From positions 1-55,529 of the forward strand of contig UYFQ01000809.1 in assembly GCA_900617105.1 (NCBI GenBank): a stretch of DNA of 55,529 nucleotides, in the 5' to 3' direction. Shown here piece after piece: positions 1 through 48,620 of the stretch (position 1 is its first letter; each line of letters starts with the position of its first letter). The notes under the pieces were generated by a model. It saw only the letters and a program-made list of their open reading frames with translations. It made no database searches and was not told the origin of the DNA. The position numbers and the translations under genes were made by a program. The DNA is from Hydrurus foetidus (lineage: Eukaryota).

Positions 1-60
1 TTCATCTTTGCCCTCCGCCGTCCGGATCCCCGTTCCAGCCAAGGCCTCAGTGAGACCACA
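1..60 (+). repeat. 3' part of the Gypsy-1 5' LTR
   Basis: Near-identical to 7176-7235 (one mismatch seen near position 5); ends in CA. Confidence 0.93.
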
Positions 61-456
61 GTAAGCTTACTTGGAATCAGCTAGCCTTTCAAGACTAAAG
101 CCGATTGCCAAATCAAGATTTCCCAAACCGCTACCCGACTCATTTTCGAAGCGAAAAGAGAGTGTCAATAGCTTTCTGTAACAGAAACGACTATTAGACT
201 ATATAGAGAGTTGATTCGCAAAGCGACAGCCTCTATCTCTTCGTCTTAACGAAGCTCGATCTCAGCGATTCCTCGCAAAATCAAGATTTCCCATCGAAAA
301 CTTTCGTCACACGAAAGCCGACACGCCAGTAGTAGCTTTCAGCATCGAAAGCGCTACTTAGAGACCCAATAGCACCACTCCGTTCGTAGGATTACCCGCT
401 CTGCAGGCCTCGCCGAGAAATTTCCTCCCGAATTTCTCGTCAATTTCCTCCCGAAA

Positions 457-1668
457 TTGACCAAACCATTCCAATCCTCCTTTCTCTACTACTCCACTCT
501 ATACCTACCAGTCTTCACAAAAGTTCAACCTATCCTTCCTCTCTCTGAATTCACCGCGTCCGAGTTCCGTCGCGGTCCCTTCAATAAACTACCGACCATT
601 ATCGTAGCGAAGACGAAGACAATGGAAGCTCAAGATATCCTCGACAAATCAGCCTCCCCAGGAGCAAATACTACTTCCCTCGGCCTACCAGCCGCGACAA
701 TGCTTAGCATTCGCAAGGCACGAAAGGCCGAGGAGAAGATGCGAGCAGAAAACATTGCTCGGAGCAAATCTCTCATGGCCAGACAAGCCATAAAGGCCTC
801 AGCCACCGCCACCCGCATTCCCGACGAGATTGCCGCCCGCAACTCCGAACGGTCTTCAGAACGTAAGCGTATTCAAGATGCTCAAAAGACATCAGACGCA
901 ACGACTGAAGACGAAGTGGCCATGATTGCATATGTCCTAGAAGCAACAAACGAAGACGAGAGACGAGAACGCGAGATCTGCGCTCGATCTCGTCCGTGCT
1001 CTAGCACCTCAGTTGCAAAAACCATCGACGTAGAGGGAAGCCCAAAAGGCAGACCAAAACGAAGAAGAGGAGGCAACGAGAAAGACAAGAAAGCAAACGA
1101 ACAAGATATCCCTGATGATGCTAAGTCAATCGAGAGTGAGCCCATCCCCGTCAGGAAATCATCTCGAACGACCAGGGTTCAAACCTCGATGGAGGTGGAC
1201 TTAGAGTCGGGAGAGGACGAGGAGGATGAGGGCGACATCGATAACGACGACGAGATCAACGACAACGACGACGATAACGTGATAGTTGCGGAGTCAGTGT
1301 CGGATGAGGACGATCGATCGTCAGACGAGTCAGTTGCATCTACATCCCCTGAGAAGCGCAAGACTAAGTCTCCGCCAAAGCTAACAAAAAAGATTTCCAC
1401 AAGAAAAAAGATCATCGTTCCACATAAGACAAAAAAGGCAGAGCAGTTAAAAACTGCATCAGCAAAAGAGTCTAAGGAAGATGTGTCTAAAAAGACCATC
1501 CTTACTCAGAGGCCAAAACCGAAGACGTCTGCGGCGACAAGCGCCGCGTTGAAATTAAAACAACAGAGGCTGCACGCAGACGCAAGGTGGAGGAAGATAA
1601 CGACGATGAGCAGAGTGATACCTCAGTCTTATCAGACGAGAATTACCAACAACAGCGTACACTCATAA
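457..1668 (+). CDS. Gypsy-1 ORF1: charged, low-complexity N-terminal Gag region (first ATG at 622); probably continuous with ORF2 via a -1 shift near 1489-1493
   Basis: ORF track shows acidic and Lys-rich tracts. The ORF2 frame is open from 1491, just after the A5 run in TCT AAA AAG. Confidence 0.7.
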   Translation: MTKPFQSSFLYYSTLYLPVFTKVQPILPLSEFTASEFRRGPFNKLPTIIVAKTKTMEAQDILDKSASPGANTTSLGLPAATMLSIRKARKAEEKMRAENIARSKSLMARQAIKASATATRIPDEIAARNSERSSERKRIQDAQKTSDATTEDEVAMIAYVLEATNEDERREREICARSRPCSSTSVAKTIDVEGSPKGRPKRRRGGNEKDKKANEQDIPDDAKSIESEPIPVRKSSRTTRVQTSMEVDLESGEDEEDEGDIDNDDEINDNDDDNVIVAESVSDEDDRSSDESVASTSPEKRKTKSPPKLTKKISTRKKIIVPHKTKKAEQLKTASAKESKEDVSKKTILTQRPKPKTSAATSAALKLKQQRLHADARWRKITTMSRVIPQSYQTRITNNSVHS

Positions 1669-4600
1669 ATATGAATGAGGTATTCATGCTCAACGCCGAG
1701 AAACTCTTGACAGATGGTCCCGCTACCATCCAGGCATTCCACGACCAGGCCAACCTGCCCAATTTCAAAACACATTGGAAGCAGATCATTACCGAGAATG
1801 CCCTGGTACCTATAAGGTTCAGGCTAAATGGAATGAAGGCAGTCCTTGGGTACACCCAGCCAGAATGTTCCACTTGGCCAGTCATCCGCGGAGTCACCCT
1901 ATCGATCCGGCAAATCGCAAAGGACTTGACAGCCTGCTTCTCACAAGCAACTAGGACGTCCAACACGACCTACGATTGTAATGAGAAGATCAGAGCTTAC
2001 AAGTTTGCTTACGACTTTGCTGACGCATATGTCGAAGAAGCATCGATCACTCGGTTTGAGGAGATCATCAGCCTGTACTACCCTGATAGAACAGACCTCA
2101 CACCCGAGCGCGAGAACGAAATCTGCAAAGCATTTTACAAAAAGCTTCCAGCAGAGAACGCACTCGGGATGAAGTTCTTAGAGGCCACCAAGACGTCCAT
2201 AAAGAAGACAAAAAGGGACACCATCCAAAACATGTACATGCGACTCAGCGACCACCTCAACATCGCACGTCAATGCGTCAACGACGCAGCGGAGTTGGGG
2301 AACAGCAGATACCGCTGGACCACTCCAGACAGCCCAACTTCCGAGGAAGCAAATAGACAACGAAGCTCGTTGTCTAATGCATCATACTCCTCCAACCTGC
2401 ACGCAGTGGGATTCCACCCAGAGGAGGACACACGCGCACCACCATACAAGGCGATCGCAAAGCGTCAGCCAGAGGTACAACATTACCCCGGCCTTGACCG
2501 CAACACCAAGCTGTGCCACACCTGTGGGCGCAACGGGCACAACCGTTACAATTGCCGATTCCACATGAACGAGCATTGCAACAACTCGCACAAAATGTGG
2601 TCCGAATCCCTTATGGGGCTCGAATGGAAACGGCTCGGTCACAAACATTTTGTAATCGACGCACATCTTCCATCGGGCGGAGTATCTCGGGAACGAAAAC
2701 AAATCCACGTCCCGAATAACTTCGAATTCCCCACGGAGGAAGAGGACATTGACATGGGTAACACCCAACAAAAGTCAAACCCTCGGCAAGGTACCAGTGC
2801 AACACCATACAGCAAGGCTAAAAAGCCGGCGTACGACGACAGACGAAGAAGTGAGTTTTCAATACCACCTGTCAATGTCGCAATTTTACCGCGTATCGAC
2901 TTACCTCGAACACGAACATTACTTTCAGCTATACTACCTGAAAAAGTACACGATTACTTACAAGTCAACATATCTCTCCCACAGATCAGTATGGCCCAAG
3001 ACAAGACGAGCGCCCTCGCAAAGACGACCGCGCTCAAGCAGACAACGACAACCGCGACCGCGACCGCCAACGCAACGAGCGAGAGGCCTTCGCGCGCGAC
3101 AAGGCGAAAGAAAAGGAAGGATCCTCCAGCAGCTCCAACAAGCCCTACTCCTCAAAGTAGAGGCATGGATGCACTGGCCCAGATCGATACGGGGTGCGAA
3201 GTCGGTGACGTCATTAACCGTAGAGTCCTCGAGGGCCTACGGGGCGAACACCGCTTACGCGACTCCGATTCACCTATGTGGATTTGTTCTGGTTTAGATA
3301 ATAAGTGTATTGAATCAAAATCTGTGCTTGATATTGTTGTATCATTTAAAAAAGATTCTTTAAAATACATCTTCTCTCTTCCAGTCCGCATTGCCGAAGA
3401 CTCTGAAATAGATTTAATTATAGGTATAGATACCATAAAAAATCTAAATTTAGTTAAAATTATGCCCGACTTTTTCGGCCATAAAAACCATACTGATCCA
3501 TGGACCCGTATAGAAAATTCAATGGTACTAACCACGAATAATCTGACGGACGTCAATCCAACCACCACGGTCCAAGAACCGCCAGTCAATAATGACTGGG
3601 ACGGGGCAAAACCCTCCAACACAGACAACCTGAGGCAGGGTGACATGGTGTCTGGAGGTGCTTGTACACACAAGAATTGCACATCGCCATATGGGTGTTC
3701 GCAGATTCGAGTAGCGGCCGCTACCGACCCTGTTCAAGACGGGTCCGTCTTGCAAGTATGTGAGAAGTCAACAACCCACTTGACTTCTCCTCGACAAGAT
3801 GGTTTAGAGCTCACGCTCGACAGAGAAAAGGAAGTAGCTATCCAAATCTCCCCTTCCATAACTCCACCCCAAACATATGGCTTTGTCGCGGCTCTACTTC
3901 GGGAGAAGGAATATCTCCCGGAGGCTCAACCTTTCGGTCCGGAAGAAATTGACTACAAGTCAAAGGACACATTCGCTCCTTTTATGCTCTCAACGCACAC
4001 ATCCACGGATATCATAGACCTCATTCACATTGAAGGTACTCATGAGGAAATTGCACGGATTCGAGAAATATGTGTAAAACACATAGTCCTGTTCAAAAAT
4101 GAACTTGGACCAGAATCAGCAAGAATACCACCATTTGATCTTTCCGTAATGGAGAAACAATGGAAGGTTCCCAAAAACAGACATGCATCACGCATACAGT
4201 CTACAAAAAGACAAACAGTTATACGAGAGCTAGTGACAACTATGCTCAAAAGTGGTATAATAGTAAAGTCAAATGCATCGCATTATTCTCAAGTAATCCT
4301 GGCACCCAAACCGGATGGTACCTTCCGATTTTGTATTGATTACCGTGGACTCAATGAAGCTACGGAATCTGCAAGTTGGCCAATACCAAATATAAGACTC
4401 ATGTTAGGACGTCTTGGAGCTGCAAAAGCAGATACCTTTGGTGTGATTGACCTCACAGCAGGCTACCACCAGGCACCAATAACGATGAGCACAAGAATTT
4501 ATACAGCCTTCATTACATTCATGGGCATATATCATTTTACGAGACTTCCGTTTGGACCTAAACGCGCGCCATCATATTTTCAAGAAATGATGGCGTCAAT

Positions 4601-6797
4601 AGTCTTAATAGGTCTTATCTACTTCATTTGTGAGGTGTACCTTGACGACATTATAGTGTACGCAACGGGGCACTTACAATTCTGTGAACGATTGGAAATA
4701 ATATTTCAACGTTTAGAAGAGAAAAATATTTCACTTAAAGCAGCTAAGTTAAAACTTGGTATGAAAAAAGTGGAATATGTCGGTAAAGAAATATCAAAGG
4801 ATGGTATAACTATGAGTTCCAAAAAGATAAAAGGCGTGACCGACTTTCCGATGCCAAGAAAGACGACAGAAATGAGGTCGTTTCTCGGACTCACGAATTA
4901 TTTTAGGGATCATGTACCGAACCACTCAAACGTAGTTGCTCCTCTACAAAAGATGATCCTGCACGCATCCAAAAAGCAAACATTGCTAATATGGACCGAC
5001 GAAGCAGCTGATGCATTCTATATGATTAAGCAACGAATCGCAGAGAGTCCCTTGCTATATTTCATACACGATACAGCCCCAATAACCTTAATGACTGATG
5101 CGTCAGATTACGGTATTGGAGGCTACTTGTATCAGGAAGTCGACGAGAGAAAACAACTCGTCGCTCTCGTAAGTAAGTCTCTTACCAAGACACAACTGAA
5201 GTGGTCGACAATACAAAAAGAAGCCTTCGCGCTCTATTATTGTTGTACTTACCTCGACGCACTACTACGAGATCGTAAATTTACAATTCTCACGGACCAT
5301 AAAAATCTTACCTTTATTGAAAAAGATAAAAATGAAATGGTTGGCAGATGGCGTGTCGCCCTGCAGGAATTGGATTATACGATAGGCTACATACCAGGAA
5401 AAGATAACGACATTGCAGACGCAATGTCACGCCTATGTTTAAACAGAATGGAAAAGAAATCCGGACTAATGTCATCACTACATGAAAAACAATTAACGAC
5501 AAATGAGCAATATGAACTCATTGGAAGTTGTCACAACGCAACAGTCGGACATGGTGGTGTACAACGTACGTTACGGAACTTAAAAACAAAGAAGAAAGTG
5601 TGGCCGGGCATGAAAGAATCAGTAAAAACTTTCATTAAAAATTGCCCTTGTTGCCAAAAGATGTCGGCGGTAAAAATACCAGTCAATTCTTACACATACA
5701 CTACTTCAACATACAAACCAATGGAATGTCTCAACATAGATTTCATTGGACCATTTCCTGATAAGGGATACATTTTAGTCATGATTGACACATTTACACG
5801 ATTCGTCGAACTATATGCAACAAAAGATGCAACCGCTAAGGCGGCATGCACAGCATTAGTGGAACACGTCGGACGATACGGATCTCCAAGATTCCTTAGA
5901 TCTGATAACGGTCCTCACTTTGCCAACCATGTTATTGAAGAATTTACAAAACTCGCAGGCACAGTCCACGAGAAAATTCTCGCCTATTCGTCGGAACACA
6001 ATTCAATTGTAGAAAGAATGAATAAGGAAGTTAACAGGCATATTAGAGCATATACGTATGACAGAGCATCAACAGAAAATTACCAAGAAATTCTACCATT
6101 TGTTCAACGTATATTAAATACAACAATTAATGATAGAACAAAAATTTCACCGGCACAAATCCTTTATGGAAACGCCATTAATATGGATGAAGGAATTTTA
6201 ATCCCAAGAGGAGAAGTTAACCTCATACCAGAAAATATAACAATTTCATCTACAAATATGATAAAGATACAAAGTGATCTTATTCGAATTGCGGCAAGAC
6301 TCCTTAAGGAATCTGATGATGAACACAATGAGAAACAAAACCCAGAAATAACACATTTCGAGGTAGGCTCATACGTACTCGTTACTCAACGCACACAGCC
6401 AGAGACACGCATGCACACATTGTGGCGCGGTCCTCTTCGAGTTCTAAGCAATAAGAAAGGAGAATATACGCTACTCAATCTTATTACTCTTAAGAATGTT
6501 AAATACCACATGTCACAATTAAAAACTTTCTTATTTAATCCAATGCACACTGATCCAACAGATGTAGCACGTCGAGATTATTTAGAATTCTTCATCGAAG
6601 AAATAGTAGATATGAGGGGAAATATTTCATCTTATGGAGATTTAGAGTTTGAGGTCAAATGGCTCAATTATCCCTCAGAAAGTAATACCTGGGAACCGTG
6701 GCGAAGTCTAAGAAAAACAGACAAACTACACAATTTTCTTATAAGTAAGAATCTACGTCACCTAATTCCAAGAGAATTCAGGTTAGACTACGTCTAA
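1587..6797 (+). CDS. Gypsy-1 Gag-Pol polyprotein (zinc knuckle, aspartic protease, RT, RNase H, integrase, chromodomain)
   Basis: CHTCGRNGHNRYNC; AQIDTGC; FRFCIDYR and YLDD; TDASDYGIG; H-H-CPCC plus IDF/SDNG/VER; FEVKWLNYPSESNTWEP. Confidence 0.97.
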   Translation: MEEDNDDEQSDTSVLSDENYQQQRTLINMNEVFMLNAEKLLTDGPATIQAFHDQANLPNFKTHWKQIITENALVPIRFRLNGMKAVLGYTQPECSTWPVIRGVTLSIRQIAKDLTACFSQATRTSNTTYDCNEKIRAYKFAYDFADAYVEEASITRFEEIISLYYPDRTDLTPERENEICKAFYKKLPAENALGMKFLEATKTSIKKTKRDTIQNMYMRLSDHLNIARQCVNDAAELGNSRYRWTTPDSPTSEEANRQRSSLSNASYSSNLHAVGFHPEEDTRAPPYKAIAKRQPEVQHYPGLDRNTKLCHTCGRNGHNRYNCRFHMNEHCNNSHKMWSESLMGLEWKRLGHKHFVIDAHLPSGGVSRERKQIHVPNNFEFPTEEEDIDMGNTQQKSNPRQGTSATPYSKAKKPAYDDRRRSEFSIPPVNVAILPRIDLPRTRTLLSAILPEKVHDYLQVNISLPQISMAQDKTSALAKTTALKQTTTTATATANATSERPSRATRRKKRKDPPAAPTSPTPQSRGMDALAQIDTGCEVGDVINRRVLEGLRGEHRLRDSDSPMWICSGLDNKCIESKSVLDIVVSFKKDSLKYIFSLPVRIAEDSEIDLIIGIDTIKNLNLVKIMPDFFGHKNHTDPWTRIENSMVLTTNNLTDVNPTTTVQEPPVNNDWDGAKPSNTDNLRQGDMVSGGACTHKNCTSPYGCSQIRVAAATDPVQDGSVLQVCEKSTTHLTSPRQDGLELTLDREKEVAIQISPSITPPQTYGFVAALLREKEYLPEAQPFGPEEIDYKSKDTFAPFMLSTHTSTDIIDLIHIEGTHEEIARIREICVKHIVLFKNELGPESARIPPFDLSVMEKQWKVPKNRHASRIQSTKRQTVIRELVTTMLKSGIIVKSNASHYSQVILAPKPDGTFRFCIDYRGLNEATESASWPIPNIRLMLGRLGAAKADTFGVIDLTAGYHQAPITMSTRIYTAFITFMGIYHFTRLPFGPKRAPSYFQEMMASIVLIGLIYFICEVYLDDIIVYATGHLQFCERLEIIFQRLEEKNISLKAAKLKLGMKKVEYVGKEISKDGITMSSKKIKGVTDFPMPRKTTEMRSFLGLTNYFRDHVPNHSNVVAPLQKMILHASKKQTLLIWTDEAADAFYMIKQRIAESPLLYFIHDTAPITLMTDASDYGIGGYLYQEVDERKQLVALVSKSLTKTQLKWSTIQKEAFALYYCCTYLDALLRDRKFTILTDHKNLTFIEKDKNEMVGRWRVALQELDYTIGYIPGKDNDIADAMSRLCLNRMEKKSGLMSSLHEKQLTTNEQYELIGSCHNATVGHGGVQRTLRNLKTKKKVWPGMKESVKTFIKNCPCCQKMSAVKIPVNSYTYTTSTYKPMECLNIDFIGPFPDKGYILVMIDTFTRFVELYATKDATAKAACTALVEHVGRYGSPRFLRSDNGPHFANHVIEEFTKLAGTVHEKILAYSSEHNSIVERMNKEVNRHIRAYTYDRASTENYQEILPFVQRILNTTINDRTKISPAQILYGNAINMDEGILIPRGEVNLIPENITISSTNMIKIQSDLIRIAARLLKESDDEHNEKQNPEITHFEVGSYVLVTQRTQPETRMHTLWRGPLRVLSNKKGEYTLLNLITLKNVKYHMSQLKTFLFNPMHTDPTDVARRDYLEFFIEEIVDMRGNISSYGDLEFEVKWLNYPSESNTWEPWRSLRKTDKLHNFLISKNLRHLIPREFRLDYV
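2851..2984 (+). other. Predicted 134-nt retainable intron at the Gypsy-1 Gag/Pol boundary
   Basis: GTGAGT donor at 2851, CTTAC branch-like motif at 2957, TCTCTCCCACAG acceptor ending 2984. Splicing gives an R/D-rich tail ending at TAG 3158-3160. Confidence 0.7.
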
Positions 6798-6998
6798 AAG
6801 ACACAAAGGAGAACAACAATATCATTGATGATTCCCCCCATTTTTTTGCGTCTCATCCGAGACGTTTTAGGAGGTTTAGTCAGTAGGCAATAATTTTTTT
6901 CACTATTATTATTGAGTCTGACATAATTGTTGTTACTTAACATAGACTCACACGTAGTTTAGTATTTATCATAGAGTAACAAATCTAGCTTCTTCTTC

Positions 6999-7008
6999 GA
7001 GGAGGGGG
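6999..7008 (+). promoter_or_regulatory. Polypurine tract of Gypsy-1
   Basis: GAGGAGGGGG, 3 nt upstream of the LTR start TGTGA. Confidence 0.85.
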
Positions 7009-7011
7009 CAC

Positions 7012-7235
7012 TGTGACCCGTACACCGGGTATACCGGGTATACCGGGTTCGGGTACAAACGTACGCACGGTTCGGATCGAGGACGATCCGATCCATACGA
7101 TTTGTTGCGTGATATCTGCTGTGCTTATCTGTAAGCTAATCACATTGCTATCCTTTAGCATCGTTCCACCATCGCTTCACCTTTGCCCTCCGCCGTCCGG
7201 ATCCCCGTTCCAGCCAAGGCCTCAGTGAGACCACA
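7012..7235 (+). repeat. Gypsy-1 3' LTR (224 bp, TG...CA)
   Basis: Follows the PPT and its end matches 1-60. The following GCATC is the candidate TSD; the left copy is outside the window. Confidence 0.93.
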
Positions 7236-8367
7236 GCATCATCTACTGCTCCATCAGATGAGGCATCATTCTTCACTCCTGTTGTCACGAAGAAGAAAAT
7301 CCGGAGAACAAATGCTCAAATTCAAGCTGATACGGCGGCAGAGACAGCAGAAAAGATGATTCGATGTAACACGACGGTAACACAGTCGAACGTCACCTCT
7401 AAAAGCAAATCCGTGAAGTCGAAATCTGCTCCAGTAATCACATCGACAACAGAGTCAATTATTGTAATTGTCGATAAGACTTTCCCGCTCCAGACTGCCC
7501 GGTCAGTGTGGTCAACTGCAGAGCAGATTGATTTGATCAAGTCGTATAAGTCTTGGGAAACTGACTCAAAGAAGTCACAGAACAAAAAGTTAATACCCAT
7601 CAGCAAATTGTGGTTGGTTCGTATACCTTCTCTGATGGGGAAGAATTTTGGTCGAGTACGTGCAACGCCAAATAACACTCTAGCAAATTCACCATATCAA
7701 TCTAAATGGTTGGCGATACGTAAGAAGGTCAGTGATTATAAGGCATCGCAAGTAGATGGACGGGAAGAAGAATTACCGGATATTGAGGGGCCAACTGGAG
7801 GCGGAGTCGATGAGGACGGAGTGCCAAATGAAAGAATGGTTGCAGCAGCTGTAGGTGAGAGCGCTCGAGACACAAAGCGTGACGCGAGATACAACTCAGG
7901 CGTTGATGAGGAATCTATTTCATCGATACATTCCCACAATCGGTCTCAGGGATCGGATTAGTGTCGGAAAGCGATTTGAACAGTGGGGCAGGAAGCAAGC
8001 GGAACTTCTGCGCAATCGAAGGATTGCGGGGTACAGCCGTCAAAGAGGATTCGATCGCCGGGCCGCCAGCAGTTAAAGTCAGCAAATTGTCCCTGATAAT
8101 CGACTTGACAAGAACAGCTGTGCTACATCATGAGGAAAATATGGCCTTCATCAGAAGGCCATATATCAGAAGCAGAGTAGATTGGATGATATTACAAGAC
8201 GTGAAGAAAGGGATAGGAGAGAAGTTGAGTATAGAGATAGGCAGGACGCAGTCAACCATCAGAGATACAACACAGAACAAGAGAGACTGGCAGAACAACG
8301 CCGGGATAGTTTGAATGTGCAAACAACTTTCGCTGGTATTCTTTCAAATCTGCTAAATAAAATATAG
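7236..8367 (+). pseudogene. Harbinger accessory Myb/SANT-trihelix-like DNA-binding protein, frameshifted near 7910 and 8160
   Basis: Frame open from 7236. WSTAEQIDLI...LW...SKWLAIRKK tryptophan spacing. A coiled-coil tail (RREERDRRE) continues in other frames to TAG 8367. Confidence 0.7.
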
Positions 8368-10337
8368 ATGCTATTCAAATTATCACCTCATTGTTGTAGG
8401 CATACGCAGTGTTTCCATAGATGTTTTTTAATTCTTCCAGTGATACTTGAGCACCTTCACGTAGATTAACCCACATGTCATACATTTTACCTAACTTAAC
8501 ACGGTATTCTTAAACTAGTTGCTGAGCATTATGAGCAAACGGTACGCCTAGTGATAAATTGAAATAGAAGTAAGAGCGCATATTTTAATGTGGTGAAACA
8601 AGCAATCAGTGAAAGTTTACCATGATTCTGTAGGATCCTATCACAAGCTAAATTGATTTCTGCTCTGTCAGCTTTGGCTTCAATTGGATCTCTCACTGCT
8701 GCACCCTCCTCATCATTTACATCACCAGCATCGATACAAATGTTGTGTAAAAGGCATGCACACAGCACTATTTCAGGTATGATCCGTGTGCTTTCCTGTA
8801 TAGAATGCTGATGCAAACGCCTCCATTTCATCTTCAACAAGCCAAATGCATTTTCTACAACGCATCGTGCACCACTTATACTGACGTTGAATAGATTTTT
8901 TAACCGATTCCTGGCGTCATAATCGGGAGCAATAAAGCACGATCTCTTATGAAATCCACCATCTGAGAGAATCATATACGGGTGTGGAAAAAGAACTTGG
9001 TCTCTGCGTATAAAAAGGTTCGATAAAAAGTTTGATCTGGATACAGCTCCAGTGTCAGATGTAGATCCAGGCCATCTAGAGTCAGCGAAAATAAAGCGCT
9101 TCTGATGGTCACAGATAACCATTAAATTTAAGGAATAGGTTTTCTTCCTCTTACACTAAAACTCGCGTGGAATGAATGTGGTTGAGTGTGGTGCAGCAAT
9201 TTTAATAATACTACCATCAATAGATCCCAATAGGTATGGTATGTTGCTCTTCTCGAAAAACCACAGAGCTGATACTCGACGGCCTGCTTCCAATGGAAAC
9301 GATATTTTGGGGAAAGGGCATCCTTCAAACCAATACGCTGATAGAAACGCTTTGCACCCGCGTTCAATCCTTTTGCTGATACACGGCTGACGCACTCCAA
9401 ATTCCTTACCCAAGGCGTGTTGGTCACTCTGTATCACCAAGTACCTAATCAAAGTTGCTACCACAACTTTGCCCCTGATATAGCGAAATCTCGCTGACTT
9501 CAATGAATACGTTGGTCGTGAATATAGATAAGGGACACAATCTCTGACGATGCCATTGAAAGTAGATTGTGACATACGGTACTCTTTGTACCAATCATCT
9601 TCACGTCCACGATAAGTATCCCAAAACGACTGTTCTGATTTGCGGGTGGGATCTACGGAAAATTCATCGATCGCTATTACTCTCGCCCAGAGCTGCTCCA
9701 TAAATTTTTTAGCGGGCAAGAAACAATCATCCTCAAACTCATCAGTCAGGAAAGCATCGGCCAAATCAAACGATGAAGGAGCCACCAAGGTGAGTAAAAT
9801 AGGATCCTTCTTTTGCAGAATCATCAGAAGATTCATGATGATGATGACTCCAGCTATAATGTTACAGACTCTCCTCCTCAATCCATCGTGATCGACTGCC
9901 ACTTCCACAAATTCAGGGCCATCGTCAGCGACCTCGTTCAAATTTCTTTTCCTGCAACTTCTCATTGCTAGAGAGCTACTCGAAGATTGTGCTCAAGAGG
10001 ATGTACTGTCGAGTATCATGGTAGTTGGTAGTTTTACATTGTAAAATATTGTGCTGGAGCTGGAGCTGGAGCGACATCCATTTCAAAAGAGTTTGGGTCT
10101 AAAATTTTAGGTCCGCACAACAGCGTTTTTTGTTTCTTGTGAGTTGGAATAAGGCCAATTCATGCTACGATACGGTGCATTCCCTCGAGCCGAGGCTTGG
10201 AGAACTGTTATAATTTATAATGTAGGTCACATTTAAGTGACATTAAATCACATTTAAATGTTCACATTTAATGAAAGCACTTATTATCAGGTACACCCTC
10301 CGGTGAGAAGTTTTTTATGAAAAAAAAGAAAGAAATC
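8063..10337 (+). repeat. 2275-bp direct duplication, copy 1
   Basis: Matches 13777-16051 at a constant offset of 5714; at least four substitutions seen. Confidence 0.95.
8375..9965 (-). pseudogene. Harbinger DDE transposase with an in-frame TAG (9156-9158), a 73-nt intron (8548-8620) and a TAA in the last exon
   Basis: YRMSQSTF, IDGSIIKI, SLNLMVICD, WPGSTSD, SDGGF, RCVVENAFGLLKMKWRRL. The two ORF-track pieces are in the same frame. Confidence 0.92.
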
Positions 10338-10352
10338 AAGGTGATGTTTTTA

Positions 10353-10603
10353 ATCGGTACCAGTGTCAAAAAGGCTGTACCAACGGTACATACAGTACAA
10401 GTCGAGCCAAATCACAATTCACATACCTGGCCTTGCAAAGACATTCATGCAGAAGACACCATCTCTAAATTCTGGATAACCCACTGGCATCTCCAGATCA
10501 GCAGGTACATGGTGATGTCAAAAAAAATTGCAATTGAATCCAAACTGTAAAATTCTCAACTGATCTCTCACATTTCCGACAATCAACTTCTCATTCAGGC
10601 TGA
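10353..10603 (+). repeat. Left TIR of the pogo-like element
   Basis: ATCGGTACCAGTG...TCAGGCTGA, inverted at 13518-13768. Confidence 0.95.
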
Positions 10604-10792
10604 TTTTAAGACGACGATTACCGTTAATTGCCTGAAAGTTAGAGAGAAGTGAGTCAGATGGTGCAATCGTATGTATGGATAATTTGAGTTGCTAACAAAG
10701 CATGACTCAAATCGCTCAAGCAAGAGTCCTATTGTGATAGATTACTGATTAGATGTAGATCACATACAAGAACTGACACTGACAGCAATTGC

Positions 10793-13262
10793 ATGCTCAC
10801 TCGCAGAAGCAGTAGAGCAGCGGCAGTGAGTGGGCTTAGTCAACTCGTCCCGCTTGATGAATCGGCAGACGAAGACGATGCGGATGCTAGCAGTCACAAT
10901 AAATTGGATGAGTCGGAGGCAGAGGAGGTCATTGAGAATGAGTCTGCGGCAGAAGAGGTCGTCGACAATGACATCACCTTACAGCAGGTTGGTGTAGTAA
11001 ATGCTTAAACCAATTGTCTGGCCTCGCGTACACAGTAAGTTAATTCAATTCTGATAATGCAGAGGATAGAGAACGCCGTCAAAGACGTACAAGAGAATGG
11101 CTTCAGCATCCATCGATCATCACGGGTACACGATGTTACTCGGCGAAGACTTACGATGTCAGTTGCATCGCATGCTTCGATGAGAGGTTCATGTAGACAT
11201 CAAGTTGTTCTTGTAGTGAGTCTTACTTCTATCTTTAATTAATGGAAACGCAGTGCTTTGCGACATCATGCAAACCCAAATCTTGAGGTCTCACAACGCG
11301 GTCGGCCTCGTTCGGTGTCAGACCAAGTCATAGCAAATGCTATTGCACTCGCTGAAGAGAAAGACCTGCGCAAAGACTCCTGCACATCTAGTGTTGATGT
11401 GATGTCTGTCGTGGACAATCTTCGCCGTGAGGAGCTGGCCCACATGGGCCTCAACCCCTATATAGTTTTGCCTGTTTTAAGTCGTAGTACAAAATCTCGA
11501 GTAGTTAAAAAAGTTACGCCACAAAGAATAAAAAATGGATCAATACAAAATCCGAGCAGACAGAGGGCTCTAAGCGACGCAAGGAATGCAATATCATGCG
11601 CTGCCACATGGCTTGCAGTATCAGATGGCATCGCGAACGGAAACTTTGTGCATTCGTGGGACGAATGCAGCGTCATGTTAAATGCATTCAACGAAAAGCA
11701 GACAGTCATGTGCACAGCAGCTGGAAGGAAAAAATTAGCTGCAAGAAACTTAGCTCCCGCGACGACAGAAATACAGCATCAGAGGAGGATGCTCAAGTTG
11801 GGCTTAAGTAAGCATTTATATCTTAAATCATTAATCAATTATCAACATAGATTTACAGAAGAAAGTTATACCATAATTGCAGATACAAATGCTCATGGAT
11901 TGCTAGAATGTGCTATTGCCATGATTAGCGATGACAACTTTACGAGCTGTAGGTCATTCAAGGTACTATTCAAATTTATGATGATGTCCATGTACATACA
12001 AAAGAGATTTACTTAACAGTTGTCACTACATGCAGTTGAAGGAGGGGCTCTACTGCTATCTAGTACCGACTGGGTATGATGCGACAACCCTTATGAAAGA
12101 TTTATGGATTGATTGCGTCCTACCCGAGTGCGACAGACACTATGAGCATGCAGTGGATGAACTCACACGCCGAGGTCCAACGGAGATGCACGCTGGAATC
12201 CATGTATCATCGGCATCGACGTCGGCACCCACATCGTCATCCTCTTCCTCATCGTCAAGTGCAGTCAGCAACTGGAGATCGATCCTTACATTTGACGGGT
12301 GCTGGCCGCAACTCCGTGCTGTAATGACAAGGTTGAACGTCAAATTTTCAGAGAGAGGTTACGAAGGGTTCAAGTTCGCTGCTGCCTCTACAATGGTAGA
12401 GCAGCCAAACGATGTTGGACACTGCCACAAGGCAATCAAATGCTACTACAAGAGCGACAAGTATAGGAAATGTCAAGTTTGGGAAATCCCTGCTTACCTC
12501 TCTGGTTTTGATGCAACGTTGAGCGATGCGGGACTGGACAATGGGAGTCAACAGACCATCTTCAAGGCTCTCTGTCATCTGGAAGCATGCCTTTCCAAGG
12601 TATGCACCATTCCTATGGTAAGAGAAGGATTCCTCGTTTCTGGAATCTACCCTGTAGACGTGTACGCGATACTCTCCGGCTGGAGCGGATGGAGTCTAAT
12701 CGAAAAAGAGAAGGCGGAAGAATTGATTAGCTTGCTCCCCACTTTGACAGAGATAGCGAAAATCAGAGGGAAAGTTACAGATGTGGAGATTGAAGAGTGC
12801 ATGGGACATTTGATCGAATTTGAGAGTAATACGCGAAAGTCAGACAGTTGTGCTATGAATCACGGTCGCTGTCTGTGGACCAACAACGACACAGTTATCG
12901 CGGCATACAGGGATAAGGTGGCGGCGGATGTGCAGAAGGGGGTGGAATTAGACAATAGGAACATGGAAAAGGAGTGGAGGATGATGATGCCGGACAGGGC
13001 TGCATCAGAGGACAAGAGAATGGCTGCTCGCGCCGCATCACTTGTCGTCGATACAGAAACAGTTGGTGTACCTGGTAAAAAAGTCAGGCAATACAGATGC
13101 AGCAACTCGCTCTGCACAACATCTGCATCTGCAGTTATAAGGAGAGGGTGGACAAAATGTAAGACAAAAGGTTGCAGCCAAGCGTTCTGTGCAGACTGCA
13201 CTGAAGTCTCACTCCAACATCAGAATATTTGTGGAGATAGCTCTCGCAATGAAATGGTTTAG
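10793..13262 (+). CDS. pogo-like DDD transposase, 5 exons (10793-10987, 11063-11157, 11254-11807, 11883-11962, 12036-13262), ~716 aa
   Basis: psq-type HTH (AVKDVQENGFSIHRSSRVHDVTRRRL), RGRPR, SWDE, TFDG, QPNDVG, GFLVSGIYP and a Cys/His-rich C-terminus. Four GT-AG introns join in frame (2151 nt). Confidence 0.88.
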
Positions 13263-13517
13263 CCTGATCGACATCAACCCACCTTGTCTCATTGCTTTTT
13301 CTCATTCCTCATATGCTATTCCGAGATAATGCTCGTTCGACTCGATCGTAACTAAATGCGATCTCCCATTTTGAATGCTCGGTAATGCCCGACAGCAGAC
13401 CCTGTAAAATCGTAGAGAGGCATCAGATGGACCTGAAAAAATTAGGAATCCCCAAACATGATAGTCATAGCATATCCGTTGAATTTGGTGTACTCTTATC
13501 ACCTGTGAGTCTATTTC

Positions 13518-13768
13518 TCAGCCTGAATGAGAAGTTGATTGTCGGAAATGTGAGAGATCAGTTGAGAATTTTACAGTTTGGATTCAATTGCAATTTTTTT
13601 TAACATCACCATGTACCTGCTGATCTGGAGATGCCAGTGGGTTATCCAGAATTTAGAGATGGTGTCTTCTGCATGAATGTCTTTGCAAGGCCAGGTATGT
13701 GAATTGTGATTTGGCTCGACTTGTACTGTATGTACCGTTGGTACAGCCTTTTTGACACTGGTACCGAT
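13518..13768 (-). repeat. Right TIR of the pogo-like element
   Basis: Reverse complement of 10353-10603. Confidence 0.95.
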
Positions 13769-13776
13769 GACTTTTA

Positions 13777-16051
13777 CCGCCAGCAGTTAAAGTCAGCAAA
13801 TTGTCCCTGATAATCGACTTGACAAGAACAGCTGTGCTACATCATGAGGAAAATATGGCCTTCATCAGAAGGCCATATATCAGAAGCAGAGTAGATTGGA
13901 TGATATTACAAGACGTGAAGAAAGGGATAGGAGAGAAGTTGAGTATAGAGATAGGCAGGACGCAGTCAACCATCAGAGATACAACACAGAACAAGAGAGA
14001 CTGGCAGAACAACGCCGGGATAGTTTGAATGTGCAAACAACTTTCGCTGGTATTCTTTCAAATCTGCTAAATAAAATATAGATGCTATTCAAATTATCAC
14101 CTCATTGTTGTAGGCATACGCAGTGTTTCCATAGATGTTTTTTAATTCTTCCAGTGATACTTGAGCACCTTCACGTAGATTAACCCACATGTCATACATT
14201 TTACCTAACTTAACACGGTATTCTTAAACTAGTTGCTGAGCATTATGAGCAAACGGTACGCCTAGTGATAAATTGAAATAGAAGTAAGAGCGCATATTTT
14301 AATGTGGTGAAACAAGCAATCAGTGAAAGTTTACCATGATTCTGTAGGATCCTATCACAAGCTAAATTGATTTCTGCTCTGTCAGCTTTGGCTTCAATTG
14401 GATCTCTCACTGCTGCACCCTCCTCATCATTTACATCACCAGCATCGATACAAATGTTGTGTAAAAGGCATGCACACAGCACTATTTCAGGTATGATCCG
14501 TGTGCTTTCCTGTATAGAATGCTGATGCAAACGCCTCCATTTCATCTTCAACAAGCCAAATGCATTTTCTACAACGCATCGTGCACCACTTATACTGACG
14601 TTGAATAGATTTTTTAACCGATTCCTGGCGTCATAATCGGGAGCAATAAAGCACGATCTCTTATGAAATCCACCATCTGAGAGAATCATATACGGGTGTG
14701 GAAAAAGAACTTGGTCTCTGCGTATAAAAAGGTTCGATAAAAAGTTTGATCTGGATACAGCTCCAGTGTCAGATGTAGATCCAGGCCATCTAGAGTCAGC
14801 GAAAATAAAGCGCTTCTGATGGTCACAGATAACCATTAAATTTAAGGAATAGGTTTTCTTCCTCTTACACTAAAACTCGCGTGGAATGAATGTGGTTGAG
14901 TGTGGTGCAGCAATTTTAATAATACTACCATCAATAGATCCCAATAGGTATGGTATGTTGCTCTTCTCGAAAAACCACAGAGCTGATACTCGACGGCCTG
15001 CTTCCAATGGAAACGATATTTTGGGGAAAGGGCATCCTTCAAACCAATACGCTGATAGAAACGCTTTGCACCCGCGTTCAATCCTTTTGCTGATACACGG
15101 CTGACGCACTCCAAATTCCTTACCCAAGGCGTGTTGGTCACTCTGTATCACCAAGTACCTAATCAAAGTTGCTACCACAACTTTGCCCCTGATATAGCGA
15201 AATCTCGCTGACTTCAATGAATACGTTGGTCGTGAATATAGATAAGGGACATAATCTCTGACGATGCCATTGAAAGTAGATTGTGACATACGGTACTCTT
15301 TGTACCAATCATCTTCACGTCCACGATAAGTATCCCAAAACGACTGTTCTGATTTGCGGGTGGGATCTACGGAAAATTCATCGATCGCTATTATTCTCGC
15401 CCAGAGCTGCTCCATAAATTTTTTTGCGGGCAAGAAACAATCATCCTCAAACTCATCAGTCAGGAAAGCATCGGCCAAATCAAACGATGAAGGAGCCACC
15501 AAGGTGAGTAAAATAGGATCCTTCTTTTGCAGAATCATCAGAAGATTCATGATGATGATGACTCCAGCTATAATGTTACAGACTCTCCTCCTCAATCCAT
15601 CGTGATCGACTGCCACTTCCACAAATTCAGGGCCATCGTCAGCGACCTCGTTCAAATTTCTTTTCCTGCAACTTCTCATTGCTAGAGAGCTACTCGAAGA
15701 TTGTGCTCAAGAGGATGTACTGTCGAGTATCATGGTAGTTGGTAGTTTTACATTGTAAAATATTGTGCTGGAGCTGGAGCTGGAGCGACATCCATTTCAA
15801 AAGAGTTTGGGTCTAAAATTTTAGGTCCGCACAACAGCGTTTTTTGTTTCTTGTGAGTTGGAATAAGGCCAATTCATGCTACGATACGGTGCATTCCCTC
15901 GAGCCGAGGCTTGGAGAACTGTTATAATTTATAATGTAGGTCACATTTAAGTGACATTAAATCACATTTAAATGTTCACATTTAATGAAAGCACTTATTA
16001 TCAGGTACACCCTCCGGTGATAAGTTTTTTATGAAAAAAAAGAAAGAAATC
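13777..16051 (+). repeat. 2275-bp direct duplication, copy 2
   Basis: Matches 8063-10337. Confidence 0.95.
14089..15679 (-). pseudogene. Second copy of the Harbinger transposase pseudogene (same stops)
   Basis: ORF-track translations differ from copy 1 only by V>I and C>Y. Confidence 0.92.
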
Positions 16052-40544: not shown

Positions 40545-42302
40545 CTATTTTTGGTTATTAAGTTTGAGGAGATGTTGTAAGTTTTCTCTGTCTTTTAGAT
40601 TTTCAAAGGTTCCAACTACCAAGTCGAAGGACTCTTTATTCAACACTTTCTTATACAGTAAACACGCTATATCAAACTTTTCAAATGGGGCTAGTGGACC
40701 AACTAACAGGATGATGTCCATTGCTTGTCGGGCTAGAAAAGCTCTGCTGTTGGAATACTGTAATATTATCTCCTCCCAGTTACTCTGAAATGTTTAAGTG
40801 TGCTTTTGATAAGTAAAATATTGTGTGTTTTGCATAGTATTGTAGTCAATTAAAGTACAGGGATAGAGTGCAGTGCAGTGAAGTGCAGTGAAGTAAAGAG
40901 GATTAGATCTTTATCCGGTCGAATTCATGAGGGATGGAGGATGAAGGAGGATTGAGTGCAGTAGAGTAGTATGGTGCAGTGTAATATAATATAAAGTTGA
41001 TCAGTGTAGCAGCATAGATTGGTGTCCTATAATGGAGCGAATAGGAGAGTGAGTGTTGCATTAAATGAAATGAAACAAAATCAAAATTTACCTGCAAACG
41101 TTTGTCCATCGGGTCGATTAAGTCTACCAACAATTTATCAAACTCAATCTTAGTCAGCGCTGAGCTGTTCATGGACAACATGAGATGGCGCACAGCAGTC
41201 ATCGTAGCAGCTTCAATATGAATCGCTTGAGTTGTCTTAAGAATCCAGGAATGTTCCTCGATAGGAATGTTCCGAAGAGAAGGAGAAGAGTTGACCACTG
41301 ATTTCAGATTGGAAGAACAAGAGATCAAGTCTTCTTCGCATTGACTGTCATTACTCAGCCCTACAGGAAGCCTTTCAGGCAGTAGGTCCGTTTCTACACC
41401 AACACACGCACTATTTCCAACTTCAACTTGGTCGGATTTCGAACCGTGTAATTCAATCGTACTCGCTCCATCTGACACCGCAGAAGATGCAGCAGAATCG
41501 CACCGTTTATGAGAGGTCTCAATGTCATCTCCATCATCTCCCTCAGTTGCACTAGAGTCATCCACAGACTCGGAGGCGTTCTGTTGGTGGTTGAACACAG
41601 TGAATTGAAAAGATACAGGAGAGCTTCCCCATGATAAAATATTTTGATATGGAAATTGTAACAATGGTGCTGAAATGCCTGAGAAAGAAATAGAATAAAG
41701 TTGATCAGATTTGATGCAGAGCACAGCGATTTTATTTTGAAGATTTCATGTATCTTCTCGAGGTCTAGAAATTATCATGTCAGATGTCAAGCATAGGAGA
41801 GAACTTAATTTAACAAAAAATCATAAAAATTGAGATGGGATGGGAGTCTTCGAAAGCAGATGTCCAGTATTGATGAAGTTTCCCATGAAGTTACATTCAT
41901 GTAGACAATCGCTGTGGCATCAAATCGTAATTCAGATATCTGCACACAGTAATCAGCATTTTTTCCAGTCACACGTGATTGCTTCGATTGATAGGCTACC
42001 CCACCTTCGTCAATAATGTCAAGTGACTCCGGGGACACGCGCAGTAAATATTTCCCTGAAGTTATCAGATTGTGTATGCGGCACATATCGTGGGGTAATG
42101 AGATTTTGAAAGTCTGCACCGGCTGATCCTTCGTTTGTGATTCCGCGATCTGAGCCGATTGCAAGATCGAGGGAAACTTGCTTTTCGAGTTGCCAACTTC
42201 GTTCGTCTTGGTGGTAGCTTTGGTTAGGGATGGAAATGCTGACGGTGCTGAGATCCTCAAATCTTCTCCATCAGCGAGCATGATGCTGCCGGCTGCTCCC
42301 AT
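40545..42302 (-). CDS. Uncharacterised N-myristoylated protein with a PH-like domain; exons 42302-42005, 41678-41092, 40784-40545
   Basis: MGAAGS N-terminus; LLQFPYQNILSWGSS..FQF; GT-AG introns join in frame to TAG at 40545. Confidence 0.75.
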
Positions 42303-42477
42303 TTTTAGAAGTTTCTAATGATGATTTCACTGTTTTATGCGCTACTTTACAATGAGCTGCGTCATCTCGTCTCGGTAGAGGGTGTGAGAGAAGATGTACT
42401 GATGGACTGATGGAGAGAAACAAGAAACATGATGTGGGATGGGATGTGGGATGTGGATTTTGGATTAGGCAATTGTG
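42195..42477 (+). repeat. 283-bp direct duplication, copy 1 (first 36 codons plus upstream region of the myristoylated-protein gene)
   Basis: Matches 48338-48620 at offset 6143; one substitution seen. Confidence 0.95.
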
Positions 42478-42919
42478 TTCGAGGAACTTAGTTCCGTACG
42501 TACAAACGCACCGGATAACTTACATCGTAGTGATTCGCTCAGTAGCTTGTAGTCACATGTATTGTCATTGAATCTTGAGCTACGTCGAAAGATCTTCAAG
42601 TGCAATACTCAACCACGTACGTTTTGTAGTTTAGATACCAGAGGCTAAAAGTAAGCCAACAAGAAATCGCGCGAGTTAATCCCATAGACTCGTATATTAC
42701 TTTGTCACGCAAATAAGTAAGAAGCAGTATTTCAAACTCCTCTTCAGGAAGTCTTGATAGTGTAGGAAAGCGCGCCTGCACAGTTGAAGACATTCTATCG
42801 AGGAAGTTCAGGCTTATTTTACAAGGACAAGGATAATTCAACATAATTCTATTCTCCTACTTCAAGTTGACTGTACCAGTCACCAGGGGAATCGAGGTCG
42901 CATTACGGTTAAAACCGAT
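42476..42919 (+). repeat. Copia-1 5' LTR (at least 444 bp)
   Basis: TGTTCGAGG start; no differences from 47889-48332 seen by eye. Confidence 0.93.
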
Positions 42920-43001
42920 CACAAAGTAATAAATAAAGTCTCCAAGAGAGAATCTTGGTAGCAGTTCAAGACCAGAGAGTATCTGGCAGTAAAATCAAGA
43001 C

Positions 43002-46000
43002 ATGTCCGGACGCGGTCATGGTCGAGGACAAAGAGGTCCAGGAAGGGGAGCCGGTCGCGGCAGACATACACCTCCAGCAGCTCAGACAAAGAGCACCAAA
43101 GAGCCCATCTTTCGAGGGCACGATTCAGAGCTCCCCAGCCTCAACTTCGGAGCGTCTGCAAAAGAAAACAAACCAATAGAGTTTCTTCAGTTAATGGGAG
43201 AACACACGGCCATAAGTTACAAGCCATCTATCTGTCACGCATTTTGGACGATACCACCTACGTTCGGCGATGAGGAAGAAGAGCCGGAGATGCCAGCCGA
43301 AATTCCAGCCGGCAACATGGGCAAAGCCATACTCTCTCAATACCTAAGTGATCAGAAGGATTGGAAAACGGATTTTAAAAAGATTGCAGAGCAGAAACAA
43401 GCAGTGTTCGCATTGGTGTACGCTCAACTCAGCGAGTCTTCGCGATGCGAGATTCAGGACGATGAAGATTGGATTGAGAACTATCAGCAGAGAGATCTCT
43501 TGTATCTCATACAGAGAATTCGATCAACTCACATTGCAAGACAAACCGGCAATCCCGGTCAGGATCGAGAAAGGGTTCAAATGCTGTGGGCAACTATTCG
43601 CATGCAGCCGTACGAGACAAGTTTCGCTTTCCGAAAGCGCGTCGACGACCACCAGCTGGAGCGAACAGCCGTCGGACTTCCAGTCATTCCAGAGGAGGAT
43701 CTGGTGATAGGCATTTTGAACCGACTGGACATGTCCCGATATTCATCGTTGGTGACAAACTATTTGGACAACGAAAGACGGGGAATCGCGGACCTTCCGA
43801 TTCTCAGCTCAACCCTGTGGAAAGAAGTGAAAGAAGCGCAAGTTGTCAGGTTTCGCGGGGTGAGAGGGAGTGATATGGAAAGTATATACCTGTCGCGAGT
43901 AGATGACATCCAGATCGACGGAGGCCGGGGACGGGGCCGGGGACGCGGGGGCCGGGGACCTCGTGGTGGTGGCCGCGGCAGAGGCCGATCATCTCATGAA
44001 GAGAAGGAGACTGTGGGCAAGTCAAGCACCACACCAGCAATAAAGTCCACAGCTCCCAACCTGGATCACATCGTGTGTTGGAATTGCGGTATTAAAGGCC
44101 ATCGCTCCTCCACATGCACCATCAAGAAAGTCAATTTTTCTTCAGCAGACGACGAACTGATTTACCTGGCAACCAGTGTTCCGGATTGGCGCACTCCCTG
44201 TCCCGATAATGCGTGCGACGACGACCAGCATAGAGAGAGCATCTTCTTCTCCACGGTGTCGGGCAATCAGGACACAATGCTCCTGCTAGACACTCAGGCT
44301 AGCATTCACATTTTCCGAAACCCAGCCATCACGACTGACATCGAGACAACGTCCACCCCTGTAACAATTCAAGGAATAACAGGGGATCGTGTTAGAGTAA
44401 CACAAGAAGGCACTATTCACGATGTCGGTATCAAGGGGTACTACAGTCCCAACATGGCTGCAAACATCATAAGCTACAACAAGCTTAAGGAGACCCACAA
44501 CATACACTATGACGAAGCGAGAGACATCTTTACAGCAACTTCACATACAGGCCCAACTCTCACCTTTGCATGCATTAACGGCCACTACGTCATGGACATC
44601 CACGCAATACGACAGGCATACGTCGTATCGCTCTCATCCAAATCAGCCAAGTATTCCAGAAAGCAACTGAGCGCGGCTCGTGATGCCTACGAGTTCATGC
44701 AGAGGATGGGATACATAAGTTATAAAGCAGCCGCAGAAATAGTGCAAAGGGGTAGCATGAAAGAAATAGGTTTTGTTAGATCAGACCTGGTTAACGCTCA
44801 AGATATCTACGGTACTCCCGCTGCGTACCAACTTGGCCAAGGCACTCAAAGGAGTGCGAAATGTCAGGAAAATGATCAAATACCCATCCACCAATCTGTC
44901 AATCAGGAGCTCCAGGTAGACCTTTTCTATTTCCTCGGACAAGCATTCTTCCTCAGCATCTCAGTCCTTCTCGGGCTCATTATGGTCAGCCATCTCGGTC
45001 CTGGAAATGAAACAGCATCGTCAAGTGAGAAAAATAACGAACGATCACGTTCAAAGGCAGGCGAAGCGCTGCTCATGCATGTCACACAGTATCAAGCAAA
45101 AGGATTTCGAGTACTTACAGTAACGTCAGATGGCGAAGGCGCCGTTAAGTCTATCCGTCAAGAAGCTCAAAAGCTCGGCGTAGAGCTCAACATCCTGGGA
45201 CGCGGATCTCACACACCCCATGCAGAGGCGGCCATACGTCATCTAAAGAACAAAGCCCGGTCCACTCTTCATAGCCTGCCGTATTCATTGCCATCTAAAT
45301 TAGCAGTGCATTTTATTGCGTTTGTCGTCCACACGTCAAATATGGTGCCCAAGGTAAACTCCCCAGGCCACCTACCTGCATACACCGCGTTCAAAGGCAG
45401 AGCCCCAAATTACAAGATCGATGCGCCATTTCCGTTCGGCACGGCTGGATTTTTGCAGCGGGCACAAACTGTGCAAAGCAATTCCATGATCCCTAGAGCC
45501 GATTACTGCGTGTGGTTGGGAACCACACGCAACCTGAAAGGAACACACAGGTGTCTAAATTTAGATACACTGCGAGAAGTCACGGGGGACATATTCCGAC
45601 CGGCATTACTCACGCAGGCAGCAATCACAAGACTCAAAGAGCTTGCTGGATCTGTACCTTTACATCCTCAGGATATAGGACCACCTGAGTCAACTCTAGA
45701 TAATCCTGATGCACCATATGCGCTCGATCCTCATCGAGGGGTAGATGCAGCCGACTCGGACCCTAACGCAGATATGGAAACAGACGCACCAGTAAACACG
45801 ACTGTAAGCTCAGGGGTAACGGAGGAAGAATTCGCTGAAAAGGAACTCACCGACATGACGCCAGAACTCCAATCGTCGGATGTCCAATCGTTGGATGCAC
45901 CGAATGAGCAAAACAAAGACGAGACTCCAATTGATCCATCAGCAACCGACATTGTCCCTGTGGAAGATTCGTATGATCAGATAAGAGATGAATCAAACAG

Positions 46001-47687: not shown

Positions 47688-47888
47688 GTACTGAACAGCA
47701 ACCATCCAATATTTCACCACGTCTTTTTCGAGTATGAAAGTGCAGGTCAGGAAATTTCCGTTTCGCTGCTTTCAGGTATTATTTTTAAGTTAGCCGTTTT
47801 CAGTTTTTTATTTTCATTTTCACTTCAGAACAAAAGAACACACACACTTCATGCGCACTACACAACTGACTGAACTAATCAAGGGGTA

Positions 47889-48332
47889 TGTTCGAGGAAC
47901 TTAGTTCCGTACGTACAAACGCACCGGATAACTTACATCGTAGTGATTCGCTCAGTAGCTTGTAGTCACATGTATTGTCATTGAATCTTGAGCTACGTCG
48001 AAAGATCTTCAAGTGCAATACTCAACCACGTACGTTTTGTAGTTTAGATACCAGAGGCTAAAAGTAAGCCAACAAGAAATCGCGCGAGTTAATCCCATAG
48101 ACTCGTATATTACTTTGTCACGCAAATAAGTAAGAAGCAGTATTTCAAACTCCTCTTCAGGAAGTCTTGATAGTGTAGGAAAGCGCGCCTGCACAGTTGA
48201 AGACATTCTATCGAGGAAGTTCAGGCTTATTTTACAAGGACAAGGATAATTCAACATAATTCTATTCTCCTACTTCAAGTTGACTGTACCAGTCACCAGG
48301 GGAATCGAGGTCGCATTACGGTTAAAACCGAT
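47889..48332 (+). repeat. Copia-1 3' LTR, lacking the terminal CA
   Basis: Identity to the 5' LTR stops at ACCGAT, followed by TCCCT and the host duplication. Confidence 0.92.
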
Positions 48333-48337
48333 TCCCT

Positions 48338-48620
48338 AACTTCGTTCGTCTTGGTGGTAGCTTTGGTTAGGGATGGAAATGCTGACGGTGCTGAGATCCT
48401 CAAATCTTCTCCATCAGCGAGCATGATGCTGCCGGCTGCTCCCATTTTTAGAAGTTTCTAATGATGATTTCACTGTTTTATGCGCTACTTTACAATGAGC
48501 TGCGTCATCTCGTCTCGGTAGAGGGTGTGAGAGAAGATGGACTGATGGACTGATGGAGAGAAACAAGAAACATGATGTGGGATGGGATGTGGGATGTGGA
48601 TTTTGGATTAGGCAATTGTG
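48338..48620 (+). repeat. 283-bp direct duplication, copy 2
   Basis: Matches 42195-42477. Confidence 0.95.

Follow-up and report, generated by a model that had tools for sequence, protein, structure and literature searches.

Gag made by splicing is known from Copia elements. In BARE1, a Ty1/Copia element of barley, removal of a 104-nt alternative intron leads to a stop three residues past Gag (PMC3735527), and Copia elements of Arabidopsis use a splicing-coupled frameshift with early termination (PMC5580714, PMC12786077, PMC7197481). The splice cases reported from sunflower are also Copia (PMC7730604, PMC9784723), and the sole Ty3/Gypsy Gag RNA found in triticale had no intron (PMC7765848). 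For single-ORF Ty3/Gypsy elements, the literature, as far as its accessible text goes, speaks of frameshifting, readthrough, or a "single ORF" and leaves the source of excess Gag unexplained. The accessible part of PMC13547354 holds nothing on splice-made Gag in Ty3/Gypsy elements, and a literature search that covered mostly openly accessible main text found no published case of a short Gag-only intron in this group. Here, we describe a Ty3/Gypsy element of Hydrurus foetidus whose transcript, with a probability that we put at roughly 85%, is optionally spliced at 2851–2984, the spliced RNA encoding Gag alone and the unspliced RNA serving as Gag-Pol message and genome. A Ty3/Gypsy version of this strategy in which one exon overprints a loop of the protease would be new.

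The window (the whole 55,529-nt stretch that was analysed) begins inside the 5′ LTR of the element, so that only the 3′ end of this LTR is present (1–60, ending in CA; a 98% repeat of 7176–7236), and all features of the element lie on the plus strand. The Gag-Pol ORF (1671–6797; 1,708 aa from its ATG) has the order PR-RT-RH-IN-chromodomain, with the catalytic DTG of the protease at 3186–3194 (sequence and structure alignment), reverse transcriptase and RNase H at 4305–5369 (Pfam PF00078, PF17917, and PF17919; PDB Ty3 RT), an integrase with H2C2 zinc finger and core at 5502–6065 (PF17921, PF00665, and PF24764), and a chromodomain at 6594–6737 (PF00385, 36.4 bits vs. a cut-off of 25.1). Downstream are a polypurine tract and the 3′ LTR (6999–7235; tract 6999–7008, LTR from TG at 7012 to CA at 7235). 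The TG..CA LTRs with a polypurine tract, the PR-RT-RH-IN order, and the Ty3-like RT are those of Ty3/Gypsy elements; RT at aa 879–1040 precedes integrase at 1278–1465, the reverse of the Ty1/Copia order, in which integrase comes before RT. The best PDB match of the RT is Ty3 RT (E = 2e-69, with 1.5e-30 for the next of 12 PDB matches), a measure of similarity and not a tree. Judged by these features, the element is a single-frame Ty3/Gypsy (Metaviridae) LTR retrotransposon. It may also be a chromovirus, a label that is owed to the chromodomain; this domain does not decide the matter, because chromodomain-bearing Gypsy lineages outside the chromoviruses are described from Ectocarpus (PMC12477816).

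Gag and Pol are in one frame with no apparent recoding site, apart from a break near 1556 within gag that puts the front part of gag (622–1668) in a frame different from that of the ORF at 1671. The single Gag-Pol ORF proposed in the first-pass annotation is open across the candidate intron described below, but from 1671 on it misses the gag front. Because other copies show a one-base length difference at 1556 (five contigs each in sequencing runs X3 and X4) and because the relative P0001, in which the break is absent, has one continuous frame of 2,049 aa across both window ORFs (622–1668 and 1671 on), the break is probably a lesion of the window copy and not a programmed shift. Directly after the 5′ LTR, a perfect 10-nt palindrome (61–70) stands in place of a TGG-type tRNA primer site; complementarity to the LTR is limited to 7 nt (at 7131, within the 3′ copy), too little for self-priming to be called. 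A 48-nt stretch of the 3′ LTR (7047–7094) has an inverted match of 88% at 54210–54257 near the window end, where a related LTR probably lies on the minus strand.

The candidate intron (2851–2984) lies within the Gag-Pol ORF and has a length of 134 nt (3n + 2) without a stop in the Gag-Pol frame. It begins with the phase-1 donor GAA|GTGAGT, with GT at 2851, and ends at 2984 with the CAG acceptor ...TCTCTCCCACAG. The Gag zinc knuckle (CX2CX4HX4C at 2514–2555, read from the translation) would be retained in both predicted isoforms. Joining 2850 to 2985 in silico gave a 58-residue tail, junction residue included, with its stop TAG at 3158–3160, which is 25 nt upstream of the catalytic Asp codon at 3186. 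A script run on the window sequence returned every coordinate that the first-pass annotation had given for donor (2851), acceptor (2984), CTTAC (2957), and the stop-free 134 nt, and the in-silico splice reproduced its frame-shifted peptide ending at TAG 3158–3160 short of the protease DTG. The T content is 0.28 in the intron, 0.12 in the upstream exon, and 0.08 in the downstream exon. Among 1,794 GT..AG pairs (60–200 nt, open frame), 2851–2984 ranks first on signals alone as well as with T-contrast, under a pair score (donor, acceptor, and T-contrast) that is simple, purpose-made, and devised post hoc after the loci had been viewed. The same donor and a second acceptor-like AG at 2927–2928 would excise 78 nt in frame; this pair ranks fourth by the full score and eighth by signals only. 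The proposed branch-like motif CTTAC is present at 2957–2961, and a second CTTAC lies at 2900; the first overlaps the conserved protein motif D-Y-L-Q and is weak evidence by itself. Donor hexamer counts from the host, taken from ~17 kb of non-element window, were uninformative (GTAAGT 11 vs. 7.5 ± 2.6 in shuffles and GTGAGT 13 vs. 8.0 ± 3.4).

On the reading that we favor, 2851–2984 is probably a functional intron, as predicted from the DNA. The donor lies behind the first base of a codon, and the acceptor coincides with the end of the Gln codon that follows the first strand of the protease, so that excision would shift the frame, and the new frame would run through a charged tail to a stop ahead of the catalytic Asp. 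Spliced RNA would yield Gag alone, with the zinc knuckle and the charged tail, and unspliced RNA would yield Gag-Pol and serve as the genome, that is, as the template of reverse transcription. Partial splicing would set the Gag excess required for particle assembly, and new insertions would retain the intron because only unspliced RNA would be copied.

To compare the locus with relatives at the DNA level, we scanned metagenomes with aligned proteases of distant relatives, which gave 21 loci; 20 were kept and represent 11 lineages, or 12 with the window, and locus L001 was dropped because its frame is not open across the region and it has no RT match. A scan of viral contigs gave nine pattern matches, none related, and a metagenome scan with a close-family alignment gave 151, none confirmed. 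Identity to the window is 52–69% in RT/RH (18 loci holding RT) and 21–34% in the protease. The acceptor was placed by a pattern based on protein only (the first strand and the next Gln), and the Gln found in this way is encoded by CAG in 12 of 12 lineages and in 21/21 sequences, lineages that are themselves related (about five groups at at least 45% protease identity); as a control, CAG is used at 5/30 codons of three conserved RT Gln positions (Fisher p = 5.6e-7 vs. 12/12). The consensus of donor sites is MAG|GTRAGT, and donors were scored over its seven free positions, although the intron norms of the host may differ from this consensus. The best phase-1 donor located 70–150 nt upstream reaches a score of 4 or more out of 7 in 11 of the 12 lineages compared with 41/178 gag-side windows, and at least 5 in 9/12 compared with 13/178 of these control windows, while phases 0 and 2 in the same windows reach maxima of 4 and 3 and stay below phase 1 in 11/12 lineages. 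One lineage, L014, has a weak donor (score 2) inside the set window and a donor with score 5 at 161 nt after later widening. The donor GT is constant while the residues there vary (G, S, or C, then K, E, N, or T).

With the full score, the predicted pair ranks first among 537–2,362 GT..AG pairs of any phase in 11/12 lineages; ranked by signals only, it is first in 7/12, with ranks of 2, 3, 11, 19, and 39 in the remainder. The predicted introns are 86–134 nt long and T-richer than both flanks in all 12 lineages. After every predicted splice, translation would run through a short, charged tail and end ahead of the catalytic Asp, the shifted-frame tails being 4–57 aa long and their stops lying 10–70 nt upstream of the catalytic Asp codon. 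The first-pass annotation had pointed to other family members as the place to look for a conserved donor, acceptor, non-3n length, and stop, and these are conserved in 11–12 of the 12 lineages. The feature is real and conserved in DNA, and at this level the comparison supports a splice switch between Gag and Gag-Pol, from which we infer the splice in RNA, the resulting ratio, and the use of the tail. In five lineages (L007, L011, L012, L017, and L021), a TAG-ending motif (residues L/K-V-A) is kept ~20–30 nt after the donor, inside the predicted intron; its frame agrees with that of the donor, but the distance between the two is too short for a normal intron.

These frequencies bear on an explanation without any splice, which we consider unlikely, in which constraint on the protein produces the signals incidentally and the Gag excess arises through degradation of Pol products, as in the single-ORF element Ty5, for which post-translational Pol degradation is known (PMC5580714). 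By this logic, a hydrophobic strand entails T-rich codons and K/G-rich linkers entail AAG-GT, and the acceptor does lie on a conserved strand and Gln. The branch motif (YTRAY in 8/12 lineages vs. a background of 24%; CTTAY in 7/12 vs. 7%) overlaps the strand motif, and the hydrophobic strand of the protease accounts in part for both this motif and the T-rich 3′ part of the intron, which codes for a protease β-strand near the N-terminus (2955–2975; model residues 14–20). Protein constraint cannot, however, favor CAG over CAA (12/12 vs. 5/30), nor can it hold GT in one phase while residues change, and it leaves unexplained the first rank of one pair in ORFs of 1.2–5.5 kb. In these alignments, the choice of CAG and the phase of the donor are the parts that protein constraint leaves unexplained.

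The tail frame might also be accessed by ribosomal −1 slippage and not by splicing, given that it is open from 2940, upstream of the acceptor. This route is extremely improbable: the canonical −1 slippery heptamer is absent in the junction region of the window and in 7/12 lineages, the shifted frame of most relatives has stops shortly upstream of the CAG, and slippage would turn Gag into the minor product.

If the transcript is spliced as proposed, 2985–3160 is coded twice: the shifted frame gives a tail of Gag that is rich in R/D/K/E and ends at TAG 3158–3160, and the main frame gives a loop of the protease that is rich in T/A/P/K and modeled with low confidence (model and translation). In a structure model of 2916–3485 (28-row alignment, mean pLDDT 77.6, pTM 0.64), a strand at residues 14–20 is followed by a low-confidence coil at ~21–83 and then by the catalytic strand. 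Because model residues 7–190 align to whole retropepsin chains (Ddi1: Z 11.8, rmsd 2.5, 100 aligned; RSV protease: Z 11.3, rmsd 3.2, 115 aligned), the protease is predicted to start inside the intron and the second exon to overlie an inserted loop. The model places the shifted-frame exon on a predicted dispensable loop that lies between strands of the protease, which would be why one stretch can carry two frames; the distance from CAG to Asp varies from 48 to 201 nt across lineages.

As the close-family metagenome scan had confirmed no locus, dual-frame selection was tested on the protein sequences of close relatives. Codon position 2 of the main frame is the wobble position of the tail frame, and among 15 close proteins 29/41 single-step changes over 2985–3161 fall at this position (neutral 47%, p = 0.002), an excess that is nonsignificant against the unconstrained linker after the protease (31/54, p = 0.13). 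Changes that are synonymous in the tail frame make up 20.5 of 41, against an expected share of 0.34 (p = 0.036), and the gag region gives a comparable excess (14/26, p = 0.03). Selection on the tail frame is modestly supported by these changes. Of the dual-coded exon proposed earlier, the open shifted frame over 2985–3160 holds, while support for selection on the tail is modest, with similar values in the gag and linker controls.

Protein searches yielded 128 relatives, in rows that include near-identical copies. A Gln is present within a few residues of the end of the first strand in 39 of the 43 that have a protease motif and a recognizable strand (background 24% per 7 aa), and a tripeptide compatible with N|GTRAGT is found 22–52 residues before the Gln in 14 of the 24 that are long enough (background 15%). 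P0009 is without the Gln, and in P0006 an R-to-T change would abolish the tail stop. Because an R/D/N repeat precedes the donor-compatible motif in several relatives (P0023, P0035, and P0040), such repeats are normal Gag-end sequence of the family; in the window element, the R/D repeat sits in the shifted frame, downstream of the acceptor. The RD-rich Gag tail that had been described for this locus is indeed predicted for the window element, but it is specific to it: the predicted tails of the 11 other lineages are K/G/R-rich and 4–37 aa long.

Six sequencing runs matched 600–6900, two of which were guessed to be RNA, at a small share; runs X1–X4 were compared over 1–7300, and X5 and X6 were left out. 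X1 and X2, which are possibly RNA, have almost no cover at 2685–3172, the junction region. In X3 and X4, which are deep and of unrecorded kind, the 2850>2985 joint was absent among 15 of 20 joints, in contigs that drop rare variants. That no RNA junction was seen in these runs is in keeping with the explanation without a splice. Glacier-metagenome contigs of X1 and X2 match the element without differences over 175–213 nt (1851–2029, 6375–6547, and 6681–6893), and the element is present in the samples of these two runs.

A transcript spliced at 2851–2984 could also have a regulatory product, either an RNA destined for decay or a Gag variant that restricts its own element, and not supply bulk Gag. 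Unless it terminates early, the spliced RNA would extend ~4 kb past the stop, a situation for which a risk of decay has been argued in Copia (PMC5580714), and a motif scan of 3101–4200 found AATAAA and ATTAAA to be absent (two AATAAT are present). We regard a regulatory product as very unlikely: the spliced frame retains the whole of Gag, zinc knuckle included, the Gag-only message of BARE1 is reportedly a spliced RNA of nearly full length (PMC3735527), and in a single frame there is no apparent recoding site to supply excess Gag otherwise.

The window contains further mobile elements. A Copia-type LTR element (42186–48620) has one frame of 1,564 aa (42993–47687) in which a donor-like site is absent from the 90 codons before the protease motif, giving no sign of the BARE1/EVD layout there; its best GT..AG pair scores 12.5 compared with 14.1 for 2851–2984. 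Fragments of another Copia-like element, with gag-like and integrase-like frames, lie in a C-rich region at 51396–54074. A nearly identical transposase-like unit occurs twice (8063–9992 and 13777–15706), flanking a 3.4-kb element (10353–13768) that has perfect terminal inverted repeats of 251 nt and ORFs at 11243–12016 and 11985–13262.

How does the optional splicing proposed here compare with known systems? Among Ty3/Gypsy elements, Tf1/sushi chromoviruses share the domain order and include the single-ORF members Tf1 and Tf2 but are described, in the accessible text, as using a −1 frameshift, readthrough of an in-frame stop, or a single ORF and no Gag-making intron (10.1101/2022.12.06.519325). 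Ogre, CRR, and Bagy2/Athila are Ty3/Gypsy elements in which part of the transcripts is spliced (PMC3735527, PMC6317226, PMC7197481). In Ogre, however, the splice between Gag-PR and RT permits the full polyprotein (PMC6317226), whereas in CRR it removes rt and in Athila/Bagy2 it gives env RNA (PMC3735527, PMC6317226, PMC7197481); the accessible parts of these sources do not describe any of them as switching to Gag alone at the border between Gag and protease. Drosophila copia also makes a Gag-dedicated RNA by splicing (as cited in PMC3735527 and PMC5580714), but ~2,950 nt of pol are removed compared with ~100 nt (PMC3735527, PMC5580714). EVD with its shGAG RNA is similar in that a splicing-coupled frameshift creates a stop, intron retention gives Gag-Pol, and the arrangement is conserved across the clade (PMC5580714, PMC12786077). 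The EVD intron takes out the entire protease, and its splicing is coupled to early polyadenylation (PMC5580714, PMC12786077), whereas the intron of the window element would hold only the region of the N-terminal protease strand.

By our comparison, the closest precedent is BARE1, which the first-pass annotation did not name. It too has a single ORF and a small alternative intron at the end of gag that is U-richer than its flanks and whose frame-shifting removal gives a Gag-only RNA (PMC3735527). BARE1 is a Copia element with a stop three residues past Gag, compared with the predicted 58-residue tail over the protease loop here, and its splicing was sequenced, whereas that of the Hydrurus element is predicted from DNA. 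If the prediction is true, annotation based on ORFs misses the predicted C-terminus of Gag, and the locus offers a clear example of overlapping frames, with an enzyme loop whose size tracks the tail length of another protein. We lean toward a broader view, in which a deep clade of Ty3/Gypsy elements from microbial eukaryotes sets its Gag:Pol ratio by an intron at the protease N-terminus, with the acceptor fixed at the Gln and the loop overprinted by a selected Gag tail (58 residues here), and in which, next to frameshifting, readthrough, and the plain single ORF, an independently invented counterpart of the Copia strategy would be the fourth mode of Gag/Pol expression in Ty3/Gypsy elements.
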